A stretch of DNA of 64,000 bases, from positions 7,233 to 71,232 of the forward strand of contig JACQEX010000072.1 in NCBI GenBank assembly GCA_016200345.1, given 5' to 3'. The notes below the pieces were generated by a model. That model worked only from the letters and a program-made list of their open reading frames with translations, did not search any database and was not told where the DNA came from. Shown piece after piece: positions 43,400 to 54,445 of the stretch. Position 1 is the stretch's first letter. Each line of letters opens with the position of its first letter. The translations under genes were made by a program, and so were the position numbers. Source of the DNA: Nitrospinota bacterium (lineage in GTDB: Bacteria; Nitrospinota_A; UBA7883; JACRGQ01).

Positions 43400-43532
43400 G
43401 GCTCCGAAAAGTTCCGTTGCCGGAAGGCCACTTCGAACCCATAAAACCTCGGGGAAAATGTAGATGAGGCGTATTCGTGGCGCCTATTAAAAATAATTTT
43501 TGGCACCATAATTGCTTCTTGGAGACGACCAG

Positions 43533-44459
43533 ATGATGAGGGGTTGTAATGGAAGAAACAAATTTTGGGTGGTCATTTCACTTTTGGCCACCATTATGAT
43601 TTCATCCACAGGCTGTTCCGGCTCCGCCACCCCAAGTGCGTCATCCGGTAGCGGGACTTGGGCCGGCCTGGGCGTCAGCACAAAATCCGACACCATAACG
43701 GGCGTCGGCGGTCTGCCACACGCCCAGTACATGGTGGACAGCCACGCCACGCTTAGTTGTGTAAACTGCCATGCCTCCGGGGTGGCGAGGGAATCCATCT
43801 GCGTCAACTGCCACCCGTTAAACGCACTAGGCTCCTCAATCACCGGCACGGCGGTCGACCTCTCGACGGTAACCACAAATGCCAACCACGTCACTCTGTC
43901 CACCGGCACGCATTGCAACGCCTGCCACTACTCCAACAACGGTTCCGGCGCGGGCCAGGGGTGGCGATGGCCGACCATAACCGACACGACGATAGTGTCG
44001 CCGACGTTGAAGACTAGAATTAACCACGCGCAGTGGCACGGCATTTTAAAAGGGGTCTGCCTAAAATGCCATCCGTTTGCAAGCATAACGCTTCCGTCCG
44101 CGCATCCCTCCGTAAACTCCTCCACCGCCTGCGAGTCTTGCCACTATTATTTGAACGGCAAATGGGGCGGCAGGCACATCTTGGTGTCGAGCGGGTGCAA
44201 CCAGTCCGGTTGTCACGCCACCCACGCCCACTCCACCGTCTCCAGCAGAACCATCACGTCCGGGCAGTCGTTCGGGAGCATAGATTGCGCCAACTGCCAC
44301 CAGGCGTCGGTGTCGGGTAGCTTTGCGAACTGGCTTGGCGCGGGTCATGAATCCGTAAGCAACGGTTGCAACGCCTGCCACCAATACCACCACAACTCAA
44401 GCGACTGCGTAAGTTGCCACTCCGTAAACTATTCTTCCTGGTCGGGCGCGAGGGATTGA
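43533..44459 (+). CDS. lipoprotein multiheme c-type cytochrome (8 CxxCH + 1 CX4CH)
   Basis: Signal peptide with lipobox (LATIMISSTGCSG). Heme motifs CVNCH, CVNCH, CNACH, CLKCH, CESCH, CNQSGCH, CANCH, CNACH, CVSCH. GGAG SD before ATG 43533. Confidence 0.85.
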   Translation: MMRGCNGRNKFWVVISLLATIMISSTGCSGSATPSASSGSGTWAGLGVSTKSDTITGVGGLPHAQYMVDSHATLSCVNCHASGVARESICVNCHPLNALGSSITGTAVDLSTVTTNANHVTLSTGTHCNACHYSNNGSGAGQGWRWPTITDTTIVSPTLKTRINHAQWHGILKGVCLKCHPFASITLPSAHPSVNSSTACESCHYYLNGKWGGRHILVSSGCNQSGCHATHAHSTVSSRTITSGQSFGSIDCANCHQASVSGSFANWLGAGHESVSNGCNACHQYHHNSSDCVSCHSVNYSSWSGARD

Positions 44460-44488
44460 TTGAAAAACAATATTGGCAGAGATTTAAA

Positions 44489-47365
44489 ATGACGGTTCGT
44501 AAGGGGGGGGCGCATAAGGTTGCGTCGGCGCCGCGTCTATGGCTGTTTCTACTTTTGTTTCCGCTTGTTTTTGCGTCCCCGGCCCTTGCCGCCGATTTTG
44601 GAAGCCTGATAACTCCGGGCGAGCTTTCCTCCCTCCATAAGGAGGCGGACGGAATATCAAACTGCACCAAGTGCCACATAAGGGGGAGCGGAATAACCAA
44701 CTCGGCCTGTCTGGAATGCCACAAGGACGTCTCCTCCGCCATTGACTCCAAAATCGGGTACCACGCCTCCGTATCGTCGCAAAAGTGCATAGAGTGCCAC
44801 ACCGACCACAAGGGGAAATCGTTCTCGCTGGTGGATTGGAGCCCGAAAAAATTCGACCACTCCAAGGCCGGGTACAACCTCACGGGCAAACACTCGCAGA
44901 CCGCCTGCGAAAAATGCCACAAGACAAAAACAAAGGGAGGGGCTCAGAGCTACCTCGGCGCGCAAACCGCGTGCAAATCGTGCCACGAGGACGTCCATAA
45001 AGGGGAGTTCAAGGAGGCCGCCTGCGACACGTGCCACAACACCGAGGGGTGGAAGTGGAAATACGTCAGGTTCGACCACAACAAGCCCTACCCGCTTGAC
45101 GGCAAACACGAAAAAGTCCCGTGCCTAAAATGCCATCCCGTCAAGGCAATATTCCTCGTGCCTGAAAAAGAGAAGTGCGTCACCTGCCATTTGAAGGACG
45201 ACAAGCACAAGGGCAAGCTCGGCCCGGCCTGTGAAAAATGCCACAAGACCGCCGGGTGGAAGGACATTTTGATGGATCACTCAAAGACAAGGTATCCGCT
45301 TGTCGAAAAACATTTGCAGGTCGCGTGCGAAAAATGCCATGTTGACTCGAAGAAGACCGGCTCTTTCAAACTGGCCCGGTTCGACGTCTGCGACGCGCCG
45401 GGATGCCACGACGTCGGCAAATTTGGCAACGTGCACGAAAAACAGTTCGTCGGCAAAACCTGCGACGCGTGCCACAACGTCGCGGGGTTCAAGCCGTCGT
45501 TGTTCAAGCACGAGGCCCAGGCTTACGTTGGTTTCAAACTGGCCGGCAAACACGCGCAGACCGCGTGCGTAAAATGCCACAGGCCCGATCCCATCACGAA
45601 GGTCGCTCTCTTCAAGCCCATTGTAACCACGTCTTGCGACGTAAAAGGGTGCCACGACGTGAAGGAGCGCGGGAACATCCACGGGCTTCAGTTCAAGGGG
45701 CAGAAGTGCGACGCATGCCACAACGAGCAGGGATGGAAACCGACCGTGTTCAGGCACAACGACGAGCGGTACGCGGGCTTTAAACTTTTGGGCAAACATG
45801 AAAAGACGGAGTGCTCCAAGTGCCACGTTCCCGATTCGCTCACCAAAGCGGCGTTGTACAAGCCATTAAACAGTTCCTCGTGCGACGCGAGGGGATGCCA
45901 CGACGTGAAGGAGCGGGGGGGCGTACATGGTTCGCAGTTCAAGGGTCTGCGGTGCGAGACCTGCCACAACGAGCAGGGGTGGAAGCCGACCCTTTTCAAG
46001 CATTCCGACGATAGATTCCAAATCTTCCGGCTTGTCGGGAAGCACGAGAAAACTCCGTGCGAAAAATGTCACAGAGCCGACGCGGACACGAAGGTGGTCA
46101 AATACAGGCCGATAGTCAGCACCACGTGCGACTGGGGCGGTTGCCACGACGTGAAGGAGCGCGGGAACGTCCACGGCCCTCAGTTCAAGCGGCAAACGTG
46201 CGACTCCTGCCACAACGAGCAGGGATGGAAGCCGACGCTTTTCAAACACGACGACCCGAAGTACGCCGGGTTCAAACTTTTGGGCAAGCACGAGAAAACG
46301 CCCTGCGAAAAATGTCATCCGACCGGCCCCGTCGGGACGGCTGTATACAAGCCGATAAACTACTCCTCCTGCTCCGAGGTGGCCTGCCACAAAAATCCGC
46401 ACGGCGAACAGTTCACGGATAAAAAATGCGAGCAGTGCCACAACGAGAGGGATTGGAAGGAGCTTACCTTCAACCACAAGACTCAGTCGCGCTTCCCCTT
46501 GGAAGGAAAACATATCCCGGCAAAATGCGACAAGTGTCACGCCAACAAAGTTTGGCGTCCTCTGGCGATGGAGTGCATAAACTGCCACAAGAAAGACGAC
46601 GACAAGGCCCACGGCGGTAAAATGGGGGACAAGTGCGTCTCGTGCCACACCGCCCAAAACTGGGAGCCGAATAATTTCTTCCACGACGTAACGGGGTTCA
46701 AGCTCCAATGGGCGCACAAGCAGATTGCCTGCACCGAGTGCCACAAGACGAAGGGCGTTTTCGCCGGCCTCGGGCCGGAGTGCACAAAATGCCACACCGA
46801 CCCGCATCTGAACCAATTCGGGCCGGCCCAGTGCTCGCAATGCCACACGGCCAAAAACTGGTACGCGGAAAAATTCAACCACGGCTTCACCGGCTTCAGG
46901 CTGGAGGGGGGGCACAGGGCGGCCTCGTGCGAGCAGTGCCACAAAAACAGGGCGTACAGGAGCCTTTCCACGGACTGCTACCGATGCCACCAAAAAGAAT
47001 TTACGCGGTCCGCGTTCCACGCCGGGCAGGGCTCCACGAACTGCGTCCTCTGCCACAAGGTTTACGGATGGAATCCGGCCTCGTTTTTCCACAAGACTAT
47101 GACGTTTACCGGCTATCACAAGGTGATTCAGTACACCTGCACGTCGTGCCACACCTCCAACCCGCCGACGACGGCCAACCTAAAATGGGCCGCGTCCGTG
47201 CAGTCGCAATGCTCCGTTTGTCACACCCCGCCGCACCCGGCGTCGGGGGCGCACTCCACCGGGACCTGTCCGACGTCGTGCGATTTGTGCCACAACACGT
47301 CGAATTTTACCTCCGTCTCGTCCAGCCTTCCGTCCTGCAAGCCGGGGGTGAAACATGGGCGTTGA
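44489..47365 (+). CDS. secreted giant multiheme c-type cytochrome (~31 CxxCH + ~5 CX4CH; tandem c7-like triheme modules)
   Basis: Signal peptide (..LVFASPALA|ADFG). 958 aa with CxxCH roughly every 25-30 aa. Repeated module C-x4-CHDVKERG...C-x2-CHNEQGWKPT.F.H....GFKL.GKHE.T.C.KCH, four times. Confidence 0.9.
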   Translation: MTVRKGGAHKVASAPRLWLFLLLFPLVFASPALAADFGSLITPGELSSLHKEADGISNCTKCHIRGSGITNSACLECHKDVSSAIDSKIGYHASVSSQKCIECHTDHKGKSFSLVDWSPKKFDHSKAGYNLTGKHSQTACEKCHKTKTKGGAQSYLGAQTACKSCHEDVHKGEFKEAACDTCHNTEGWKWKYVRFDHNKPYPLDGKHEKVPCLKCHPVKAIFLVPEKEKCVTCHLKDDKHKGKLGPACEKCHKTAGWKDILMDHSKTRYPLVEKHLQVACEKCHVDSKKTGSFKLARFDVCDAPGCHDVGKFGNVHEKQFVGKTCDACHNVAGFKPSLFKHEAQAYVGFKLAGKHAQTACVKCHRPDPITKVALFKPIVTTSCDVKGCHDVKERGNIHGLQFKGQKCDACHNEQGWKPTVFRHNDERYAGFKLLGKHEKTECSKCHVPDSLTKAALYKPLNSSSCDARGCHDVKERGGVHGSQFKGLRCETCHNEQGWKPTLFKHSDDRFQIFRLVGKHEKTPCEKCHRADADTKVVKYRPIVSTTCDWGGCHDVKERGNVHGPQFKRQTCDSCHNEQGWKPTLFKHDDPKYAGFKLLGKHEKTPCEKCHPTGPVGTAVYKPINYSSCSEVACHKNPHGEQFTDKKCEQCHNERDWKELTFNHKTQSRFPLEGKHIPAKCDKCHANKVWRPLAMECINCHKKDDDKAHGGKMGDKCVSCHTAQNWEPNNFFHDVTGFKLQWAHKQIACTECHKTKGVFAGLGPECTKCHTDPHLNQFGPAQCSQCHTAKNWYAEKFNHGFTGFRLEGGHRAASCEQCHKNRAYRSLSTDCYRCHQKEFTRSAFHAGQGSTNCVLCHKVYGWNPASFFHKTMTFTGYHKVIQYTCTSCHTSNPPTTANLKWAASVQSQCSVCHTPPHPASGAHSTGTCPTSCDLCHNTSNFTSVSSSLPSCKPGVKHGR
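45389..46372 (+). repeat. four tandem in-frame 246-bp repeats (82-aa triheme modules) inside the giant cytochrome gene, plus a degenerate fifth unit
   Basis: TGCGAC...GGNTGCCACGACGT repeat anchors at 45389, 45635, 45881 and 46127 (period exactly 246 nt). A divergent unit starts at 46370. Confidence 0.85.
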
Positions 47366-48638
47366 GAGGCCTGGTATCGCGAAGGTCTTGTGCGCGGCGG
47401 CGCTGGTGTTGTTGCCTGTCGAGGGCTTTGCGATGAACCTTAAGGGGCGTGTTTCGGAGTCGGTCTTGTACGTTACCGACGACTCCGCAAAACAAAACTA
47501 CTCCTACACGTGGAGCAAGCTAAGGCTGGACGCAACCGATATTTACGGCAACAAGGAGAACAGCGCGCATTTCGACGGCGCCTACACGGGCGCGTCCTCC
47601 AACGTTTACAACAGCCAGACCCCGCCGACAAGGATTAATTACGCGAACGTAAAAATGGAGAAACTGTTTCAAGACACCGACGTGGTCATCGGCAGGCAGG
47701 CGATAGACGACCTTGTGGGGGCGAGGCTGGACGGCGCGCTATTTGACATGCACTCGTCCGACGCCGCCGGTCTCGGCGTTTTCGGCGGCACGATGCCGGA
47801 TCCGTACATGGATTATTTTTCCTCCGGCTTCCTAACTTTTGGCGGCTTTGGGTATTACAAAAAAAAGGAGGCCGGGGTCACGCTTGGTTACGCGGAAAGC
47901 CTGTACAACGGCAACGAGGACCAGGCGTATATTTACGGCTCGACCTACCTGGCCCCGACGGACGAATTTGACGTGAACGGCTCCGCAAGGCTCGACCACA
48001 ACGCCGGCAACACCAGCGGATATGATTTCACCAACCTTTTGGTCAACGCCAACTACCGAAGCGGGTGGCGCGCCAACTTAAACCTAACGTACAACCAATA
48101 CCGCGCCGTCTGGTACCAGGCGTCGGAAACGATGAACTACGGGCTTGACATGGCGTTGCAAAAATCGGCGCGCGTTTTCACCGACGTCGCGTTGGTTCCG
48201 ACCGTGAAGGTGTACGCCGACTATGACTATCGCATAAGGGACAGCGACGGCCTGTCTGCCTCCCTGCTGATGGTGGGGCTGAAGGAGAACGACTTGATGG
48301 AGATTTTTTACTACAACGTCTCGTATCGCAACATAAATTATTTCACCGCCGTTTCATGGCAGGGGGCGCTTGCGGTCGGGGCGCAGTTCAACGAAAAGGC
48401 CACGGCCGAGTTGGGCGCGGCATACTCTGAAAACCAGCAAAACCAGACCTCGAACGGCATGACGCAGATTATTTACACCGCCTCGGCCGACTACACCGCC
48501 TCAAAATCTTGGATGTTCAACTGCTCGGTGGAGACCTCCACCCAGAAGTTTGTAAGCGTCGACTCCGTGTATCTGTCGAAATACAACGACCAATACCAGA
48601 CCACGACGGTTTTTGCCAACCTCACCTACCGTTTTTAA
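47355..48638 (+). CDS. outer-membrane beta-barrel (porin-like) protein
   Basis: Signal peptide (..LLPVEGFA|). Alternating amphipathic beta-strand pattern rich in Y/N/G/T. C-terminal ...ANLTYRF with terminal Phe. Start overlaps the cytochrome gene end. Confidence 0.75.
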   Translation: MGVERPGIAKVLCAAALVLLPVEGFAMNLKGRVSESVLYVTDDSAKQNYSYTWSKLRLDATDIYGNKENSAHFDGAYTGASSNVYNSQTPPTRINYANVKMEKLFQDTDVVIGRQAIDDLVGARLDGALFDMHSSDAAGLGVFGGTMPDPYMDYFSSGFLTFGGFGYYKKKEAGVTLGYAESLYNGNEDQAYIYGSTYLAPTDEFDVNGSARLDHNAGNTSGYDFTNLLVNANYRSGWRANLNLTYNQYRAVWYQASETMNYGLDMALQKSARVFTDVALVPTVKVYADYDYRIRDSDGLSASLLMVGLKENDLMEIFYYNVSYRNINYFTAVSWQGALAVGAQFNEKATAELGAAYSENQQNQTSNGMTQIIYTASADYTASKSWMFNCSVETSTQKFVSVDSVYLSKYNDQYQTTTVFANLTYRF

Positions 48639-48820: not shown

Positions 48821-49903
48821 TCAATCGCTGAACGGGTCCTGTTGGTCGTAGATTATGGAGTAGCTTATCGGACGGTAATTGGCCGAGCCGGACTTGGGGA
48901 TTAGAAACTGGTTCGCCACCCTCAGCCATTGGACGTCGGGCAAAAGCTCGCGAAGCTTTCCGTCCGGCGGAGGCGTGGAGTGCTCGTTCCTTTCGTACAC
49001 CACCTGAAAAACCGCCACGCCGTAGTCGTCGGCCCGGTGCACCAGGTAGTTGTCCCTAAATTCCCTCGCGGTCATCAGCCCGTCCTTTTCTATCATCTCG
49101 ACGTGCTCCGACGGAATTTTAACCAGGCAGTGCTTGGCGACGTTGTCCCGCGTGATTTTTGAGAACGTGCGCGACTCGGAGCTGTTCACGTACACGGTCG
49201 CCAGCGAGTCCCCCATGCTGAGAAGCTGATAGGCGACCATGGCGGCCGTCCGCCTGCCCGATACGGTGTGGTGGAAGCTGTAGTACTCGAAAAGTTTCTC
49301 CACCAGCGTCTCGGCGTATTTGTCCCCCTTTTCGTAAAGGTCCTTCGATATGTAGCGAAGTTGTTTCCCCAGCGACTCCGCGGCGAAGTCAATCAGCCAG
49401 TCTATGCGCACGTGAAAATGCGAGAGGTGGTAGCGCACCCTTTTTCGGGCGGAGGCGTCCTGCTGTATGAGCAGGGCGTAGTCCACGGGGAGGAGGCTTT
49501 TCAAAAGGTCGTGGAATTTTTCGTGCTCGTAATATTTTTGCACCTTCAAAAGTTGCGGGGCCACGCGCGCGCTTGAAAGGACTATCTCGGGCAGGTTTTC
49601 CTTGGTGACCTTGTTGTTGTCGAAATATCGGATGTATTTTTTCAGGTCGGCGCGCACCTCGTCCTCGGTAAAAATAACTATGAAGCCGTTGATGAGGTCG
49701 TTCTCGGTCTCCGTGACCTTGCCGCGCGGCTTTAGCTCCCTTTTTTCGACGAACTTGTAGTCGGCCTTCGCGTCGAGAAAATTCTTATAGGAGTCGTTCA
49801 CGCCGTAGTCAATGAGCGAGAAATCCAGCTCGTTGCGCAGGGTCGTGTAAAGCGCCCTTCGCAACTTTTGGTTTCTACTCAGCTCGGCGTCGGATTTAAA
49901 CAT
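48821..49903 (-). CDS. hypothetical cytoplasmic protein (360 aa), no recognisable family
   Basis: Long uninterrupted ORF starting at ATG 49903. Has an Rx5H segment (RKRVRYHLSHFH) of uncertain meaning. Confidence 0.55.
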   Translation of the reverse strand: MFKSDAELSRNQKLRRALYTTLRNELDFSLIDYGVNDSYKNFLDAKADYKFVEKRELKPRGKVTETENDLINGFIVIFTEDEVRADLKKYIRYFDNNKVTKENLPEIVLSSARVAPQLLKVQKYYEHEKFHDLLKSLLPVDYALLIQQDASARKRVRYHLSHFHVRIDWLIDFAAESLGKQLRYISKDLYEKGDKYAETLVEKLFEYYSFHHTVSGRRTAAMVAYQLLSMGDSLATVYVNSSESRTFSKITRDNVAKHCLVKIPSEHVEMIEKDGLMTAREFRDNYLVHRADDYGVAVFQVVYERNEHSTPPPDGKLRELLPDVQWLRVANQFLIPKSGSANYRPISYSIIYDQQDPFSD

Positions 49904-50004: not shown

Positions 50005-51354
50005 CTATCGGGGTCTGGATTCGCCGTGGTGCGTGTCCATGCTGACTCCGCAGGCGCGAAGAAATTCGTTCGGAAGGTTGCCGCCCGCAAACACAAAGAC
50101 GGAGTCGTTCGGATATTCGCGCACGTTCCCCTTTTGCTCGATTGTCACGGAGTCGGTCTTTATCTCCTTCACGTTGGACTCCATCATGAGGGCCACTTTT
50201 TTACCCGCGACAAGGTTGTCCAGCCTTTTTTGATTGTCCGCCTTGATTCTTCCGAACGCCGGACCGCGATACGAAAGCGACACATTTGTCCCTTTCTGGC
50301 ACGAAAAGGCGACCGCGGCCTCCACAGCGCTGTCGCCGCCGCCGACTACCAAAATTTTTTGGTTTTCGTGGTGTTCCGGCTCCAATAGCCTGTACATCAC
50401 CTTTGGAAGTTGCTCCCCCGGAACGCCGAGTTTTCTAGGCGTGCCCCTTCGTCCCGTGGTCAGCAGAACATACCTTGTGCTGATGTTTCTATTCGAGGTC
50501 TTAACATTAAACGCCTCTCCCGTGTTTTCGATGGAGAGGGCCTTTTCGCCGGTGTTTATCTCCAGCCCCGTTTTCTCGACGATGTTTTTCCAAAGCGCCA
50601 CAAGCTCCTCTTTGCTAAGCGTGCCGACTTTTATTTTGCCGTACATCGGAACGTCCGCTGGCCGGGTCATGACCACCTTTGCGCGCGGGTAGGAGAGTAT
50701 GGCGCCGCCGAAGGATTCCTCCTGGTCCAGCAACAAGAACTTCATCTTTAAAAATTTCGCCTGTAGGGCGGCGGACATCCCCGCCGGGCCGGCGCCGACA
50801 ACCACCAAGTCCACCATGTCCGCCGGTCTGTTATACGGCGCACCCCTAAAATCCTCGAAACTATAATCCACCGCCTCCTTTCCCTGAAGGATGGCGTTTT
50901 TTATAAGGCCCATTCCACCCAATTCCCCGGCGATAAAAAGTCTTTTTACGTTGGACTCGAAGTTTGGAAAAACCTGCGGCAGGTCTACGCCGCGCTTTTC
51001 CGTTCCGAACACAAGCTCGATGGCTCCGACCGGGCACGCCCTGGCGCAGGCCCCGTGCCCCACGCACCTCGAGGCGTATATGGGCTCGGCCTGGTTGTTT
51101 ACCTTGCCCAAAATCTCCTGCTCGGGGCAGGCGGTGATGCAGGCCCCGGAGCCTATGCATATGGCCTTGTTAACCTTCGGGTGAATCGTCGCCGGCTCGT
51201 AAAGCCCGAATTTTTGCGCCTCGGATATCTTGACCCTCACCTTTTTCGACTTCTTTTTTTGCGACATCAGATAAGGAACGAGCACGACGGCCACGATGAA
51301 CGCCCCCACCACAAACGTGGCGTTTTCCATTAACAGCGACGTTAAAAAATCCAT
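50005..51354 (-). CDS. membrane-anchored 2x[4Fe-4S] ferredoxin domain fused to FAD/NAD(P)-dependent pyridine nucleotide-disulfide oxidoreductase (TrxR-like)
   Basis: N-terminal TM helix. CIGSGACITACP and CVGHGACARACP cluster motifs. Two Rossmann GxGxxG/A motifs (VVVGAGPAGMSAA, ILVVGGGDSAVEAA). Confidence 0.8.
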   Translation of the reverse strand: MDFLTSLLMENATFVVGAFIVAVVLVPYLMSQKKKSKKVRVKISEAQKFGLYEPATIHPKVNKAICIGSGACITACPEQEILGKVNNQAEPIYASRCVGHGACARACPVGAIELVFGTEKRGVDLPQVFPNFESNVKRLFIAGELGGMGLIKNAILQGKEAVDYSFEDFRGAPYNRPADMVDLVVVGAGPAGMSAALQAKFLKMKFLLLDQEESFGGAILSYPRAKVVMTRPADVPMYGKIKVGTLSKEELVALWKNIVEKTGLEINTGEKALSIENTGEAFNVKTSNRNISTRYVLLTTGRRGTPRKLGVPGEQLPKVMYRLLEPEHHENQKILVVGGGDSAVEAAVAFSCQKGTNVSLSYRGPAFGRIKADNQKRLDNLVAGKKVALMMESNVKEIKTDSVTIEQKGNVREYPNDSVFVFAGGNLPNEFLRACGVSMDTHHGESRPR

Positions 51355-51355
51355 T

Positions 51356-52249
51356 TCAAACCTTGAACAGGTAAAAGACCCCTATGTGCAAAAACATCAC
51401 GATGAACATGATTACGGCAAACGGTTTATGGAAGACGTGCCAGTGGTGGAGCAGTTTGTGCGACACGTCCAAAAACATCCGCGAACGGACCAGCCTTCGT
51501 TTCTCCTTTATCAACCAGTAGAGCCTGTGCTTCACGTGGGCGGGCATGGAGACGTCGCCCTTCAACTCGGCCCGCACCCGCCACAGGGCGCCCATGTTTT
51601 CCAAATCGGCCTTCGCCATCGCGAAGAGCGAGGCAAGGGCGCCGCTTTCCTCGTCGGGCGGCTCCGTCGAAATGCCGTCGAAATGCGACGATACGCGCGG
51701 CCCCGACTCGTATTTGTTTATCTGGGCGTTAATAGTCTCCATAGACTCGTCCAAATCTCCCATCATCAGTTCGTTTCCCGTGACGCTTCTGGGAATCTTC
51801 ACGTAAAGATAGCGGCCCAATATGCCGCTAAGCGCCACCAGCACCGCCGACCAGTAGCTGAGGGAGACGATGCCGCCGAATTTGTAGGTGCTGTGCACGG
51901 TAATCAGCACGGTGCCGACGATTCCCAAAAAAATATGAACGTCCAGCCACAACCTTATCGGCCCGGCGTCCACCATAAACTTAAAGCGCTTTCTAAAGGA
52001 GTAGAGCATCATTATAACAAAACAGGCGGAACCGAGCCAGCCGGTGAGGTGCCAAATCCCCTTGTTTGGCTCTTTGGCGACCTTGTATGTCGTCATCCCC
52101 GCCTCGTTCAGCCACTTAACGATGCCGTACGGTTTGCCGGTCAGCTGTAGCCAGCTTTCGACCAAAATGACGGCCGACCCGGCAAGACCGGCGATGGTAA
52201 GAAAATTTATCGTCAATTCCAGCAGGCCGCCCTGTTTTTTTTGCGCCAT
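51356..52249 (-). CDS. integral membrane protein with paired conserved His in TM helices (ferric-reductase/cytochrome b-like di-heme transmembrane domain)
   Basis: Five or six TM helices. His pairs 13 residues apart in TM3 (DVHIFLGIVGTVLITVHS) and His-rich TM5 (HHWHVFHKPF...FLHIG). AGGAG SD. Only 1 nt gap to the oxidoreductase gene. Confidence 0.6.
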   Translation of the reverse strand: MAQKKQGGLLELTINFLTIAGLAGSAVILVESWLQLTGKPYGIVKWLNEAGMTTYKVAKEPNKGIWHLTGWLGSACFVIMMLYSFRKRFKFMVDAGPIRLWLDVHIFLGIVGTVLITVHSTYKFGGIVSLSYWSAVLVALSGILGRYLYVKIPRSVTGNELMMGDLDESMETINAQINKYESGPRVSSHFDGISTEPPDEESGALASLFAMAKADLENMGALWRVRAELKGDVSMPAHVKHRLYWLIKEKRRLVRSRMFLDVSHKLLHHWHVFHKPFAVIMFIVMFLHIGVFYLFKV

Positions 52250-52545
52250 CTTTTTCTCCTACTCTTTTATTTCGTGGCGCCCGATTTTATTACATACCCG
52301 GTGCCCGTGTATACAGGGTAGTTTAGCCGGGTCAGTTCATAGCAATTTGTCCAATTATTGCAAAAAGCACAAAAAACGCCAAAGATGCAAAAAAGGTCAA
52401 TAAAGTCAAAGACGCAAAGGCCCTCCATGCAGATGCGGTGTATAAAGTAGACATGATGGATTGTGGCATAGGAGCAGAAGTTAAGAATGTGAATTTTCGC
52501 TTTTCTTTCTGGAGTTGTCAAGAAGCCACATAAAGGAAAATCCAT

Positions 52546-52574
52546 TTGACAAAAAATCACGGTTTTGGTAGTCT
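52546..52574 (+). promoter_or_regulatory. sigma70-like promoter (TTGACA -17 nt- TAGTCT) upstream of small ORF 52621
   Basis: TTGACA at 52546-52551, 17-nt spacer, TAGTCT at 52569-52574. It lies in an AT-rich divergent intergenic region. Confidence 0.4.
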
Positions 52575-52620
52575 CCAGTAAGAAGTCAGCGAAGTAATTC
52601 ATTTTATAGAGAGAACACAT

Positions 52621-52839
52621 ATGACGGATTTTTTATTCGCCACCCCGGGATTTTTTATGGGGATGGTTCGGGCATTGGATTTGGGCTCTACGTTTAACGC
52701 TTATAACGCAAGCAAAACCCCCTCTGAAGCTGATGCACTGGCTTTTTATAATGACTTTAAGGCCATTGGCGACGACCTTCGCTTGGTTATGAAGAGTGAA
52801 GAGGCGAAAATAGCCGCAAAATCTCTTAAGTTGGCGTGA
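52621..52839 (+). CDS. hypothetical small protein (72 aa) in AT-rich segment
   Basis: Preceded by a sigma70-like promoter (TTGACA-17-TAGTCT). No known family. Confidence 0.4.
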   Translation: MTDFLFATPGFFMGMVRALDLGSTFNAYNASKTPSEADALAFYNDFKAIGDDLRLVMKSEEAKIAAKSLKLA

Positions 52840-52991
52840 GCAAACGTAAGAGCCATTCCGTAAGTATCACCCAACACAAACTTACTGTTGGCCCTATCCC
52901 ACCTCCCGAGCAACTCGCCCGGTATAATGCGATTGTTCCTGGGTTCGCCGAACGTATCATAAGCAGATGGGAAGAATAGGGAACCCATCGC

Positions 52992-53234
52992 ATGAAGTTG
53001 GAGAGGGATGTCATCGGGTCGGGTATTTGGCTAGCGTATCTTGGCCTTCTTTCTGCATTTGTTTTGGGGCTGGTTGGCGTTGGAGGCGGGATTTGGCTTA
53101 TCCACGATGGAAAAGATGTATATGGGCTAGCCGCCAGCATTACGGCCTTGGGGACGCTTGCGGGTGTATATATTTGGGGAAAATCAAAACAGGGGAAAGA
53201 GCTTCAAGGGAAGCGTGAGATCATAGGACGATAG
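52992..53234 (+). CDS. hypothetical small 2-TM membrane protein (80 aa)
   Basis: Two G-rich hydrophobic helices (GIWLAYLGLLSAFVLGLVGVGGGIWLI; GLAASITALGTLAGVYIW). Confidence 0.4.
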   Translation: MKLERDVIGSGIWLAYLGLLSAFVLGLVGVGGGIWLIHDGKDVYGLAASITALGTLAGVYIWGKSKQGKELQGKREIIGR

Positions 53235-53587
53235 ACTTCTTGTCCATTGTCCCATACCAGTTTGGCAAGCTGTACTGGGTCGCTCGGACATTCTAATCGC
53301 TTTTTCATGCTCCCGTTATAAGACACAAGTTAAGGAAAATACACTTTTTGACTTATTCACAATTCAAACTGGCCCACTACAGTTTTGCCACATCGTAAAA
53401 CGTGGGGTCATTGGTAGCGACATTCCCACTCCCCTAGAATTACTGGTGCGGTGTTTTTGTGGCGCGAGTGTTACGATTCCAACGCATTTCGTCGATTTTG
53501 CTTGAAATCTGAAGTTATTAAGTCAAAAATTTCAATAAGTTAAGAAATGGCCTTTGGCATTTAAATTGCTCATTTGGAGCGGGCATT

Positions 53588-54445
53588 ATGAAAAGGGTCA
53601 ACACACTTAATTGGAATAATCGCATGGCGAGGCTGTCGCCGGTTTTTGCAACGATTTCTGCGTTACTTTTCTTTGCGGGGTGCGGGGAGGGGGAGTCAAA
53701 ACCGAACCTTCAGTCACCAACGTCGGGTAGTGTTGGGATTGTCCTTAAGGATTGGGTCGGGGTGGGGGTGAATACCGTCACCACTTCGGCGGCTTTGTCG
53801 TCCGTCAACCACAGCGAATATCTATTGGGTTCCCACGCTTCTTATACGTGCGCCGATTGCCACAATCCGGTGGATTCGACCACCGGTTTGCAGACCGCGA
53901 TACAACGCGACCAAATATGCGCCCGATGTCATCCGTTTTCTAGATATAGCGCGGTGACGACAAGCGTGGATCACGTCGCGTTGAAATCCGGGACTCATTG
54001 CAACGCCTGCCACCATTCAGCCTCCGGCGCGTCGCTTTCCACAATTATCGGATGGAGGTGGTCCTCCGTCACCAGCCCCATCGTCCGCGTGACGCACAAA
54101 ACATGGCACGGCAACGTTAAGGGAACCTGCCTAAACTGCCACACTCTGGCAAACGAAACGCTTCCGTCCTCCCACCCGGCCGTGACGTCCGCCACGGCGT
54201 GCGAGCCGTGCCACCATTACTCAAACGGCAAATGGGCCGGCCAGCACCGCAAGGTCACGAGCGGATGCAACATATCCGGGTGCCACACCGGGCATTATTC
54301 CGGCAACGACTGCTCCCTGTGTCACACCGGCGCCGCGGCGGGGGGATACACGAACTGGGCTATTTCATTCAGCAAAGGGGGGCACCAAATACAGTTCGGT
54401 TCGGCCTCGTGCGGGATATGCCACAGCGGGGGCTTTGGCGACTAA
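53588..54445 (+). CDS. lipoprotein multiheme c-type cytochrome (7 CxxCH + 1 CX4CH), paralog of 43533-44459
   Basis: Lipobox LLFFAGCG. Heme motifs CADCH, CARCH, CNACH, CLNCH, CEPCH, CNISGCH, CSLCH, CGICH. About 50% identity to the upstream lipoprotein cytochrome over the core (SGTHCNACH...GCN.SGCH). Confidence 0.85.
   Translation: MKRVNTLNWNNRMARLSPVFATISALLFFAGCGEGESKPNLQSPTSGSVGIVLKDWVGVGVNTVTTSAALSSVNHSEYLLGSHASYTCADCHNPVDSTTGLQTAIQRDQICARCHPFSRYSAVTTSVDHVALKSGTHCNACHHSASGASLSTIIGWRWSSVTSPIVRVTHKTWHGNVKGTCLNCHTLANETLPSSHPAVTSATACEPCHHYSNGKWAGQHRKVTSGCNISGCHTGHYSGNDCSLCHTGAAAGGYTNWAISFSKGGHQIQFGSASCGICHSGGFGD

Follow-up and report, generated by a model that had tools for sequence, protein, structure and literature searches.

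We analysed a 64,000-nucleotide stretch of a Nitrospinota bacterium genome (GenBank assembly GCA_016200345.1, contig JACQEX010000072.1, positions 7,233 to 71,232 of the forward strand; hereafter the window), in which two adjacent minus-strand genes, here called A and B, encode a predicted di-heme membrane cytochrome and a membrane-anchored iron-sulfur (Fe-S) flavoprotein. An earlier note, made from the sequence alone, had proposed that these two genes recapitulate, as separate polypeptides, the transmembrane electron path of NOX/FRE enzymes from NAD(P)H through FAD and Fe-S centers to heme b. The two genes and their principal features are given below in positions of the window.

51356 to 52249, minus strand: gene A, 297 aa, five transmembrane (TM) helices, a predicted di-heme cytochrome b of the inner membrane, of the type called the 'conserved IMP' (inner-membrane protein) of PCC3/PCC4.
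51893 to 51937, minus strand: codons of H105 to H119 on helix 3 of A (H-x13-H), invariant in 24 homologs.
51386 to 51448, minus strand: codons of H268, H271, and H274 to H288 on helix 5 of A, delimited by conservation and motif scan.
50005 to 51354, minus strand: gene B, 449 aa, a membrane-anchored iron-sulfur flavoprotein.
51265 to 51321, minus strand: N-terminal TM anchor of B, residues 12-30, seen in hydropathy, in the alignment, and in a helix at residues 12-48 of the AlphaFold (AF2) model.
51010 to 51180, minus strand: ferredoxin-type domain of B, residues 59-115, recognized by Fer4_10 and related Pfam models and by invariant columns.
50026 to 50811, minus strand: FAD/NAD(P) domain of B, residues 182-443, with the fold of low-Mr thioredoxin reductase (TrxR) and YpdA and no redox-active Cys.

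Gene A starts with an ATG at position 52249, 5' of which lies an AGGAG ribosome-binding site, and its stop codon is followed after 1 nt by the start of B (TGA-A-ATG), a spacing that the earlier note had read correctly and that makes translational coupling of A and B probable. Hydropathy and the AlphaFold model of A (predicted local distance difference test score, pLDDT, of 73) place its five hydrophobic helices at residues ~12-34, 66-85, 100-122, 126-148, and 277-295, with a helical insertion of ~110 residues between helices 4 and 5. When averaged over the family, net positive charge is found on the loop at residues 85-99 (+4.4) and on the stretch before TM5 (+2.7), which indicates that the N-terminus, this loop, and the insertion are cytoplasmic and that the C-terminus lies outside. 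Given this topology, the two His-bearing helices (3 and 5) are both oriented from inside to outside, like TM3 and TM5 of NOX.

A had been described in the earlier note as a polytopic protein with a pair of His residues 13 apart in one TM helix and a second His cluster in another, and we recovered both, as H105/H119 and as H268/H271/H274/H288, with the His pairs located inside predicted TM helices. All six His are invariant in 24 of 24 homologs at 29-58% identity, where they form part of the invariant motifs W101-x3-H105-x13-H119 on helix 3 and W270-x3-H274-x13-H288 on helix 5. The same homologs also share an invariant S141-G142-x-x-G145 (SGxxG) on helix 4, an invariant G145-R146-Y147-x-Y149-x-x-I152-P153, and the single residues K123, R86, and K87. 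The H105/H119 pair is kept in more distant relatives from Emticicia, Bradyrhizobium, Legionella, Roseomonas, and Sphingobium as well. When all six frames of the window were scanned for H-x13-H within hydrophobic surroundings, only five hits came up, two of which are the pairs of A, arguing that these pairs are not there by chance. We propose that H105 and H119 are axial ligands of a cytoplasm-side and a periplasm-side heme, respectively, and that H274-x13-H288 provides the second ligand pair, such that A would bind two b hemes. H268 and H271 (51437-51448, minus strand) sit at the cytoplasmic end of helix 5, with one to two turns between them and H274 above, and fall outside the two-heme model; they could serve a third cofactor or a metal, or make contact with B.

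Proteins with these features have been described before. He et al. 2017 (Front Microbiol) likened the conserved IMP of the porin-cytochrome clusters PCC3 and PCC4 to the ferric-reductase domain (FRD) and to cytochrome b and predicted that it carries two b hemes; their IMP has ~300 aa and five TM helices, of which TM4 bears an SGXXG motif and TM3 and TM5 each bear a WX3HX13H motif, and their model placed it in Proteobacteria, in Fe(II)-oxidation conduits with coupling to quinone (PMC5566968). A matches each of these published features (size, five helices, SGXXG, and both WX3HX13H motifs), and like the IMP it is encoded beside very large multiheme cytochromes and a porin, found at 43512-48638 of the window (PMC5566968). 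The FRD-like nature of A-type proteins and their association with porins and cytochromes are already published as a hypothesis (PMC5566968). Compared with the IMP of He et al., the carriers found here are Nitrospinota, Nitrospirae, MAGs (metagenome-assembled genomes) labelled Deltaproteobacteria, Acidobacteriota, Bacteroidota (Cytophagia, Emticicia), Ignavibacteria, Calditrichota, Zixibacteria, and Marinimicrobia, and A is paired with a TM-anchored Fe-S/TrxR-fold flavoprotein that is absent from the available portion of that text (PMC5566968). What appears to be new here is this ferredoxin/TrxR-fold partner, B, together with the generalization to interchangeable NAD(P)H-dependent Fe-S flavoproteins beside A; a literature search for the B partner or for a named system found nothing beyond the paper of He et al. 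(PMC5566968).

The A family is large, comprising 4,264 clusters at 50% identity (E <= 1e-3) with relatives in at least 584 species genomes, and it has neither a Pfam model nor a solved structure. Relatives of A are all annotated as 'hypothetical' in databases and those of B carry generic annotations only, and no characterized homolog with an unrelated function was found. The closest database relatives come from Nitrospinae/Nitrospinota MAGs, with one identical protein tagged Nitrospinae 'HY280'. The earlier note had also assigned A a ferric-reductase-like bis-heme signature, a claim that was upheld as far as the four invariant His and their FRD-like spacing are concerned, but not at the level of the Pfam family: A matches Ferric_reduct (PF01794) with 17 bits (E 0.006) over residues 69-127, covering the first half of the model only, against a gathering score of 28 bits. 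Among the 24 A-family members, 18 match Ferric_reduct (best E 2.8e-5) and 17 match DUF4405, in every case below the cut-off. Judging from the predicted structure, A probably adopts the four-helix-bundle fold of a di-heme cytochrome b, a fold common to di-heme membrane cytochromes in general.

FRD proteins canonically have two His on TM3 (x13) and two on TM5 (x12 in NOX2) (PMC3591440). A has all four of these His, its TM5 spacing of x13 being one residue off that of NOX2; in most short bacterial FRDs of the YedZ/MsrQ type only two or three of them are retained, and the first His of YedZ is an Arg (PMC3591440). As in NOX2, NOX5, SpNOX, and FRE (PF01794 with PF08022/PF08030), the proposed path would run from NAD(P)H through FAD to two bis-His b hemes, with the His pairs on TM3 and TM5 ordered from inside to outside. 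In contrast to NOX, the dehydrogenase is a separate polypeptide with a two-Rossmann TrxR fold and an Fe-S relay rather than an FNR fold fused to the FRD, and the signature His of NOX (His119 of NOX2, four residues after the second His of TM3; PMC3591440) corresponds to the invariant Lys123 of A. A also has five predicted helices where the FRD core has six, with the ~110-aa insertion between TM4 and TM5, and neither hydropathy nor AF2 gives a sixth helix after its second His-bearing helix.

Two other bacterial systems resemble A and B in part. MsrQ (YedZ) and the flavin reductase Fre form a two-component NOX-like system that feeds periplasmic MsrP (PMC5676040), and the likeness extends to an FRD-type membrane cytochrome b, a separate cytoplasmic NAD(P)H flavoprotein, and a periplasmic redox acceptor; Fre, unlike B, is a soluble FNR-type protein with neither an Fe-S cluster nor an anchor, and the acceptor in that system is a molybdoenzyme. 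The flavinylation-associated cytochromes of the DUF4405, PepSY-like, and MsrQ-like types share with A four central conserved His and are likewise proposed to carry electrons across the membrane to acceptors outside the cytosol, and heme b binding has been demonstrated experimentally for one DUF4405 protein (Huang et al. 2024, PMC11334425). DUF4405-type proteins differ from A in having six TM helices and in being linked to ApbE and a flavinylated protein, with neither a multiheme cytochrome/porin nor a B-type partner (PMC11334425).

For B, the earlier note had claimed a membrane anchor, two [4Fe-4S] ferredoxin motifs, and a TrxR-like FAD/NAD(P)H domain, and here the anchor, the ferredoxin-type domain, and the flavin domain all stood, while the [4Fe-4S] assignment did not, given that each motif has three Cys. 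The anchor contains an invariant Y28 and is directly followed by KKKSKK, a Lys-rich stretch that places the remainder of B in the cytoplasm; since the Fe-S domain comes after the anchor and before the flavin domain, it would be held against the membrane. This domain matches Fer4_10 with 37.6 bits (cut-off 25.5) and contains the motifs C66-x5-C72-x3-C76-P and C97-x5-C103-x3-C107-P, with six invariant Cys in total and with the canonical second Cys of each motif swapped for a near-invariant Ser69 and an invariant His100. The Emticicia ortholog of B carries the identical C-x5-C-x3-CP pattern. With six Cys instead of the eight ligands that two CxxCxxCxxxCP motifs would provide, the clusters of B are non-canonical and the '[4Fe-4S]' label is imprecise. 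Such motifs in ferredoxins and in SdhB/FrdB hold a [3Fe-4S] cluster, or a [4Fe-4S] cluster with a non-Cys ligand, and C-x5-C-x3-CP resembles the membrane-proximal [3Fe-4S] motif of SdhB/FrdB. The clusters of B would be expected to be higher in potential than all-Cys ones, and this would fit them for passing electrons from flavin to heme b. The order of cofactors also recalls di-heme succinate:quinone and quinol:fumarate oxidoreductases, in which electrons pass from FAD through Fe-S clusters to two b hemes and outward transfer is aided by the membrane potential; the folds and protein families are unrelated, and here the donor would be NAD(P)H rather than succinate and the proposed acceptor a cytochrome c rather than a quinone.

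The flavin domain of B matches Pyr_redox_3 (135 bits) and Pyr_redox_2 (95 bits), and its nearest relatives are YpdA/Bdr, followed by thioredoxin reductases and TrxR-like ferredoxin-NADP reductases; the closest PDB match is YpdA/Bdr 7a7b (E 5.7e-27; Foldseek E 6e-20). With YpdA/Bdr and the TrxR-like reductases B shares the Rossmann motifs for FAD and NAD(P)H, found as GxGxxG at 187-192 (GAGPAG) and as GGGDSAVE at 338-345, and it differs from them in its additional TM anchor and ferredoxin domain. The second Rossmann motif is followed by invariant S361-Y362-R363 and R369, and this S-Y-R...R pattern appears to resemble the established NADPH 2'-phosphate motif of TrxR, HRRxxxR. Before the first GxGxxG, residues 139-158 (50881-50940, minus strand) form a near-invariant FIAGELGGMGLIKNAxxQG, part of a conserved strand-helix segment that spans residues 139-171 and is modelled with confidence as strand and helix. 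The match of B to YpdA ends ~50 residues before the C-terminus of that family, and the 139-158 segment may represent the C-terminal FAD-binding motif in circularly permuted form.

Two known identities were considered for B and rejected. As a YpdA/Bdr it scores 154.4 bits against the TIGR04018 cut-off of 339.9, and it has Ala (GPAG) at the position of the active-site Cys, which we take to lie in the first GxGxxG region of YpdA. As a low-Mr thioredoxin reductase it would need a CxxC motif and has none, its Cys outside the Fe-S motifs being C352 and C435, neither of which is conserved. With neither a CxxC nor a YpdA-type Cys, B is not a disulfide reductase.

The A and B genes lie next to a cluster of plus-strand genes for two cytochromes and a porin-like protein, two of which bear directly on the comparison with other genomes.

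44489 to 47365, plus strand: exported multiheme cytochrome c with 31 CXXCH and 5 CX3-4CH motifs (~36 hemes) and a signal peptide ending ...ALA/AD.
47355 to 48638, plus strand: porin-like outer-membrane beta-barrel protein, 427 aa, with a signal peptide and C-terminal ...LTYRF.

To compare gene neighborhoods, we searched for relatives of A in a single genome of each species and retained 80 loci, in which the proteins of the window were located by tblastn; 69 of these have enough sequence for a downstream cytochrome to be seen, and 37 are fully flanked (at least 5.5 kb on both sides). The loci come from at least 10 phyla and include Nitrospinota, Nitrospirae, 'Deltaproteobacteria' MAGs, Calditrichota (among them Caldithrix abyssi), and Ignavibacteria, as well as Zixibacteria, Marinimicrobia, KSB1, Latescibacteria, Acidobacteriota, and Cytophagia. 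The ~36-heme cytochrome is the gene most consistently linked to A: a homolog of it lies downstream on the same strand in 56 of the 69 loci, starting within 700 nt in 47, and the position beside a porin-cytochrome cluster that the earlier note had pointed out is real and recurrent. Of the 37 fully flanked loci, 24 contain B, which is the immediate neighbor of A in 14 of them (downstream in 8, upstream in 6), and every one of the 37 has B, the cytochrome, or both. The gene order takes three recurring forms, namely A-B-cytochrome, B-A-cytochrome, and A-cytochrome(s)-porin-B, and in all seven of the closest Nitrospinota/Nitrospirae loci B directly follows A with gaps of 11-124 nt, so that A and B are co-conserved. 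Look-ups that started from B gave a similar picture in two of three genomes, where B stands beside a convergent porin-cytochrome pair as it does in the window.

Annotated plasmids were also searched by tblastn with A, and the whole module was found in a cultured Bacteroidota strain, Emticicia oligotrophica DSM 17448, on plasmid pEMTOL02 (locus L086, NC_018749.1 78197-90781). The order there is ccsA, the A-like EMTOL_RS21090, the B-like EMTOL_RS21095, genes for cytochromes with first 23 and then 40 hemes, and one for a protein of the porin family. Upstream of this module, on the opposite strand, are genes for a sigma-70 family sigma factor, an outer-membrane barrel, a Rieske protein, and a c-type cytochrome. 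The ccsA gene at the head of the cluster, a cytochrome c biogenesis gene, would fit an alternative in which A and B supply the periplasm with reductant for maintenance, be it reduction or priming of cytochromes, heme attachment, or protein repair, in analogy to MsrQ feeding MsrP. MsrQ-Fre shows that an FRD-type protein can supply electrons to an enzyme of the periplasm (PMC5676040), but the conserved partners here are multiheme cytochromes and a porin rather than a repair enzyme, the linkage to ccsA is seen in one locus only, and thiol reduction during cytochrome maturation is generally known to be the work of CcdA/DsbD-type proteins, all of which makes a maintenance role quite improbable.

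Plasmids of Proteobacteria carry shorter relatives of A (246-292 aa) with two H-x13-H motifs and SGxxG, which match the A profile with E 1e-14 to 4e-19 (database size 1e6 sequences) and agree in size with the proteins of the 'MHC + IMP + other redox protein' clusters (Table S6 of PMC5566968). In Legionella pneumophila, Roseomonas mucosa, and Bradyrhizobium sp. BTAi1, the gene immediately upstream of the short A relative encodes an FNR-type reductase, composed of FAD_binding_6 and NAD_binding_1 with a C-terminal 2Fe-2S domain. This reductase is membrane-anchored in Legionella and Roseomonas, where it matches the 'Ferric reductase NAD binding' model with 32.7 and 22.2 bits, respectively (cut-off 22.2), and the BTAi1 copy is cut short by an insertion sequence; a split partner with the FNR fold of NOX dehydrogenases does, in other words, adjoin short A relatives in the Legionella and Roseomonas plasmids. 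In Sphingobium the upstream gene instead encodes a TrxR-fold (Pyr_redox) flavoprotein that has several 4Fe-4S motifs in addition to two cNMP-binding domains. Downstream of the short A relative, three of the four proteobacterial plasmids have a multiheme cytochrome gene, with seven hemes in Legionella and Bradyrhizobium and, in Sphingobium, with ten hemes and a fused FHA domain; no cytochrome gene is annotated at this position in the Roseomonas mucosa plasmid. At least three non-orthologous NAD(P)H-dependent Fe-S flavoproteins thus hold the position beside A-family genes, often with overlapping or 1-nt junctions, and together with the cytochromes that follow they constitute the strongest argument that the cytoplasmic partner of A is an NAD(P)H-oxidizing reductase.

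These plasmid loci have some further features of their own. The Legionella pneumophila pH3-D-14 (L088) and Roseomonas mucosa pTT14-5 (L089) triads lie beside multicopper-oxidase genes, the Roseomonas locus also has copB and Spy/CpxP chaperone genes, and the Legionella FNR-type reductase has a periplasmic-looking N-terminal segment rich in His and Met, all of which hints that this subclass is copper-related. The cNMP-binding and FHA domains of the Sphingobium sp. TomTYG65 plasmid locus (L090, AP027331.1 952758-957951) suggest that its electron path is regulated by signalling.

Taken together, we consider it about an even chance (probability roughly 0.5) that A and B form a two-subunit transmembrane electron exporter, probably quinone-independent, that feeds a conduit of multiheme cytochromes and porin. 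NAD(P)H would be oxidized in the cytoplasm at the FAD of B, which is tethered to the inner membrane by one helix, and single electrons would then move through the two non-canonical, membrane-adjacent Fe-S clusters of B to the cytoplasm-side heme b of A (H105/H274). From there they would cross A to the periplasm-side heme b (H119/H288) and be handed on to the exported ~36-heme cytochrome c, with the porin-cytochrome conduit as their way out of the cell. Within this scheme we infer the occupancy by heme b and Fe-S clusters, the contacts of A with B and with the cytochrome, NAD(P)H as the donor, the direction of flow, and the independence from quinone; what computation shows directly are the genes, the conserved motifs, the predicted folds, and the synteny. 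The idea of the earlier note that a NOX-like path is split over two polypeptides thereby gains support in silico from sequence, synteny, and predicted fold.

Several observations weigh against an exporter of this kind. Every Pfam match of A is below threshold, such that A is not a member of the FRD family at the Pfam level, and a profile search of PDB sequences with A gave chance hits to its helical insertion alone; for B, the AF2 model of the Fe-S domain is poor (pLDDT <45). No A-B fusion was found among the 150 best A-family representatives. The best structural matches of A include CybB, FdnI, and HyaC, which are quinone-reactive cytochromes b. Because outward transfer of electrons leaves the proton inside, the module would not conserve energy but dissipate it, running down the membrane potential instead of building it. 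The linkage is also incomplete, as 13 of the 37 fully flanked A loci have no B within ~6 kb, three Nitrospinota loci (L006, L008, and L009) have A relatives at 37-40% identity with no B or cytochrome nearby, and one B homolog is solitary, with no A or cytochrome within 9 kb; B is consequently not an obligatory neighbor of A.

The solitary homolog would be expected if A and B were unrelated neighbors and B a soluble-type ferredoxin/NAD(P) oxidoreductase or a YpdA-like thiol reductase, as would the fact that the best named relatives of B are YpdA/Bdr and thioredoxin reductases. Against such a coincidence, linkage of A and B is kept across many phyla in three gene orders, B falls far short of TIGR04018 (154 versus 340 bits) and has neither the YpdA Cys nor a CxxC, its TM anchor is conserved together with the invariant Tyr28, and other reductases take the same position in other lineages. 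We therefore give this explanation very little credence.

The loci that lack a nearby B bear more heavily on another alternative, which would explain them: A may be a cytochrome b that reacts with quinones and, as a quinol:cytochrome c or cytochrome c:quinone oxidoreductase, ties the conduit to the quinone pool, with B as an auxiliary, an alternative donor, or a separate protein. Quinone coupling is the published hypothesis for the motif-identical PCC3/PCC4 protein, no B has been reported in proteobacterial PCC3 clusters (PMC5566968), and MsrQ has recently been reported to carry a ubiquinone cofactor (PMC12525009). This alternative does not account for the recurrence of three non-orthologous cytoplasmic NAD(P)H-dependent Fe-S flavoproteins immediately beside A-family genes or for a B that is anchored in the membrane with its Fe-S domain next to the anchor, and no quinone-site motif was identified in A. 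We regard quinone coupling, the main alternative, as unlikely though deserving of serious consideration, and the two modes are not mutually exclusive, as a quinone mode and an NAD(P)H mode could coexist. In the three Nitrospinota loci mentioned above, a conserved membrane-anchored protein of 315-326 aa is encoded directly upstream of the A relative; a search for an alternative conserved partner upstream of A in loci without B found nothing conserved beyond close relatives.

The direction of flow can also be weighed. Outward electron transfer runs with the membrane potential, and the likely role of an exporter formed by A and B would be the discharge of cytoplasmic reducing equivalents to extracellular acceptors. 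The reverse has something to recommend it, in that PCC3 clusters have been discussed mainly as candidates for iron oxidation and electron uptake in Gallionellaceae, Nitrospinota are generally known to include chemolithoautotrophs, and TrxR-fold ferredoxin-NADP reductases are reversible in principle; electrons from extracellular donors (Fe(II), minerals, cathodes, or syntrophic partners) would then pass through the cytochromes, A, and B to NAD(P)+ for biosynthesis or CO2 fixation. Such an inward chain would have to move electrons from the positive to the negative side of the membrane, opposing the membrane potential, and from Fe(II)-range potentials strongly uphill to NAD(P)+, and on bioenergetic grounds neither A nor B gives any sign of an ion-coupled energy input. 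Many of the carriers, moreover, are Ignavibacteria, Calditrichota, Zixibacteria, Marinimicrobia, and Bacteroidota, which are generally seen as organotrophs. We accordingly consider inward flow to be improbable.

A wider proposal extends the exporter to the whole envelope, and we put it forward tentatively, at somewhat less than even odds: B, A, the cytochrome(s), and the porin may together form one trans-envelope, quinone-independent NAD(P)H:extracellular-acceptor oxidoreductase (a 'whole-envelope NOX') that is a common and unrecognized input module of PCC3-like conduits in at least 10 phyla. The clusters in these phyla would then export electrons rather than serve iron oxidation, and the di-heme protein would be a universal adaptor for interchangeable NAD(P)H-dependent Fe-S flavoproteins, be they of the TrxR type (with ferredoxin, or with both cNMP-binding and poly-ferredoxin domains) or of the FNR type (with 2Fe-2S). 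In the literature of 2025 the inner-membrane component of PCC3-type conduits is still listed as a hypothetical protein. If a dedicated NAD(P)H-oxidizing partner does exist, these conduits could be fed directly from the cytoplasmic pyridine-nucleotide pool, bypassing quinones; the direction of flow would be fixed, and clusters in metagenomes would have to be re-read as devices for redox balancing and for the reduction of iron or humics, not for the oxidation of iron. A cultured carrier with the whole module on a plasmid, Emticicia oligotrophica DSM 17448, makes a direct test possible, and a three-part arrangement that recurs with reductases of unrelated origin is of interest for the evolutionary assembly of NOX/FRE-type enzymes.

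Apparent fusions involving A were examined and rejected. Fusions of A with cytochromes (770-862 aa; L021, L022, and L068) proved to be artefacts of open reading frame (ORF) calling that contain no WX3HX13H motif, and P0249 (886 aa), which joins the first half of A to cytochrome c domains, has only four helices and is probably the product of a frameshift or an assembly artefact.

The remaining genes around A and B are listed below.

43512 to 44459, plus strand: lipoprotein-type multiheme cytochrome with lipobox ...SSTGC.
53588 to 54445, plus strand: second lipoprotein multiheme cytochrome, 36% identical to that at 43512-44459 (E 6e-57).
48821 to 49903, minus strand: gene C, 360 aa.

Within the conduit cluster, the start of the porin-like gene overlaps the stop codon of the ~36-heme cytochrome gene by 11 nt. 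The 427-aa porin-like protein has no Pfam match; proteins of 410-640 aa encoded after the cytochromes in other loci are its homologs, and their mostly aromatic C-terminal residues are consistent with an outer-membrane barrel. The lipoprotein-type cytochrome at 43512-44459 is a candidate for the outer-face component of the conduit, and its paralog at 53588-54445 possibly belongs to the same system. The two paralogs flank the whole cytochrome/porin/A-B region, which suggests a duplicated outer-face component.

Gene C has no Pfam, NCBIfam, or PADLOC match. As a third subunit it was rejected, since none of the 80 A loci has a homolog of it and in sister Nitrospinae its locus tags are far from A. 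Its family is large and conserved to an unusual degree, with 2,355 hits and 45-82% identity among the 120 listed, ranging from Nitrospinota to Desulfobacterales and Desulfomonile and all hypothetical. In the window, gene C may be co-transcribed with A and B; no convincing terminator was found between B and gene C, and scans for terminators and promoters stayed at background level. On the other side, the 1.3 kb between A and the next cytochrome gene (52250-53587) is lower in G+C (47% in the block 52001-54000, compared with ~55% elsewhere) and contains small ORFs only, including one for an 80-aa hydrophobic product at 52992-53234, and promoter-like hexamers upstream of A. An Rfam search of the window found nothing, and a repeat search of 52200-53650 gave short two-copy matches only. 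The rest of the window is ordinary chromosome, with genes for flagellin, RmuC, the glycine-cleavage system, ThrRS, RNase Y, MetH, and DnaK.

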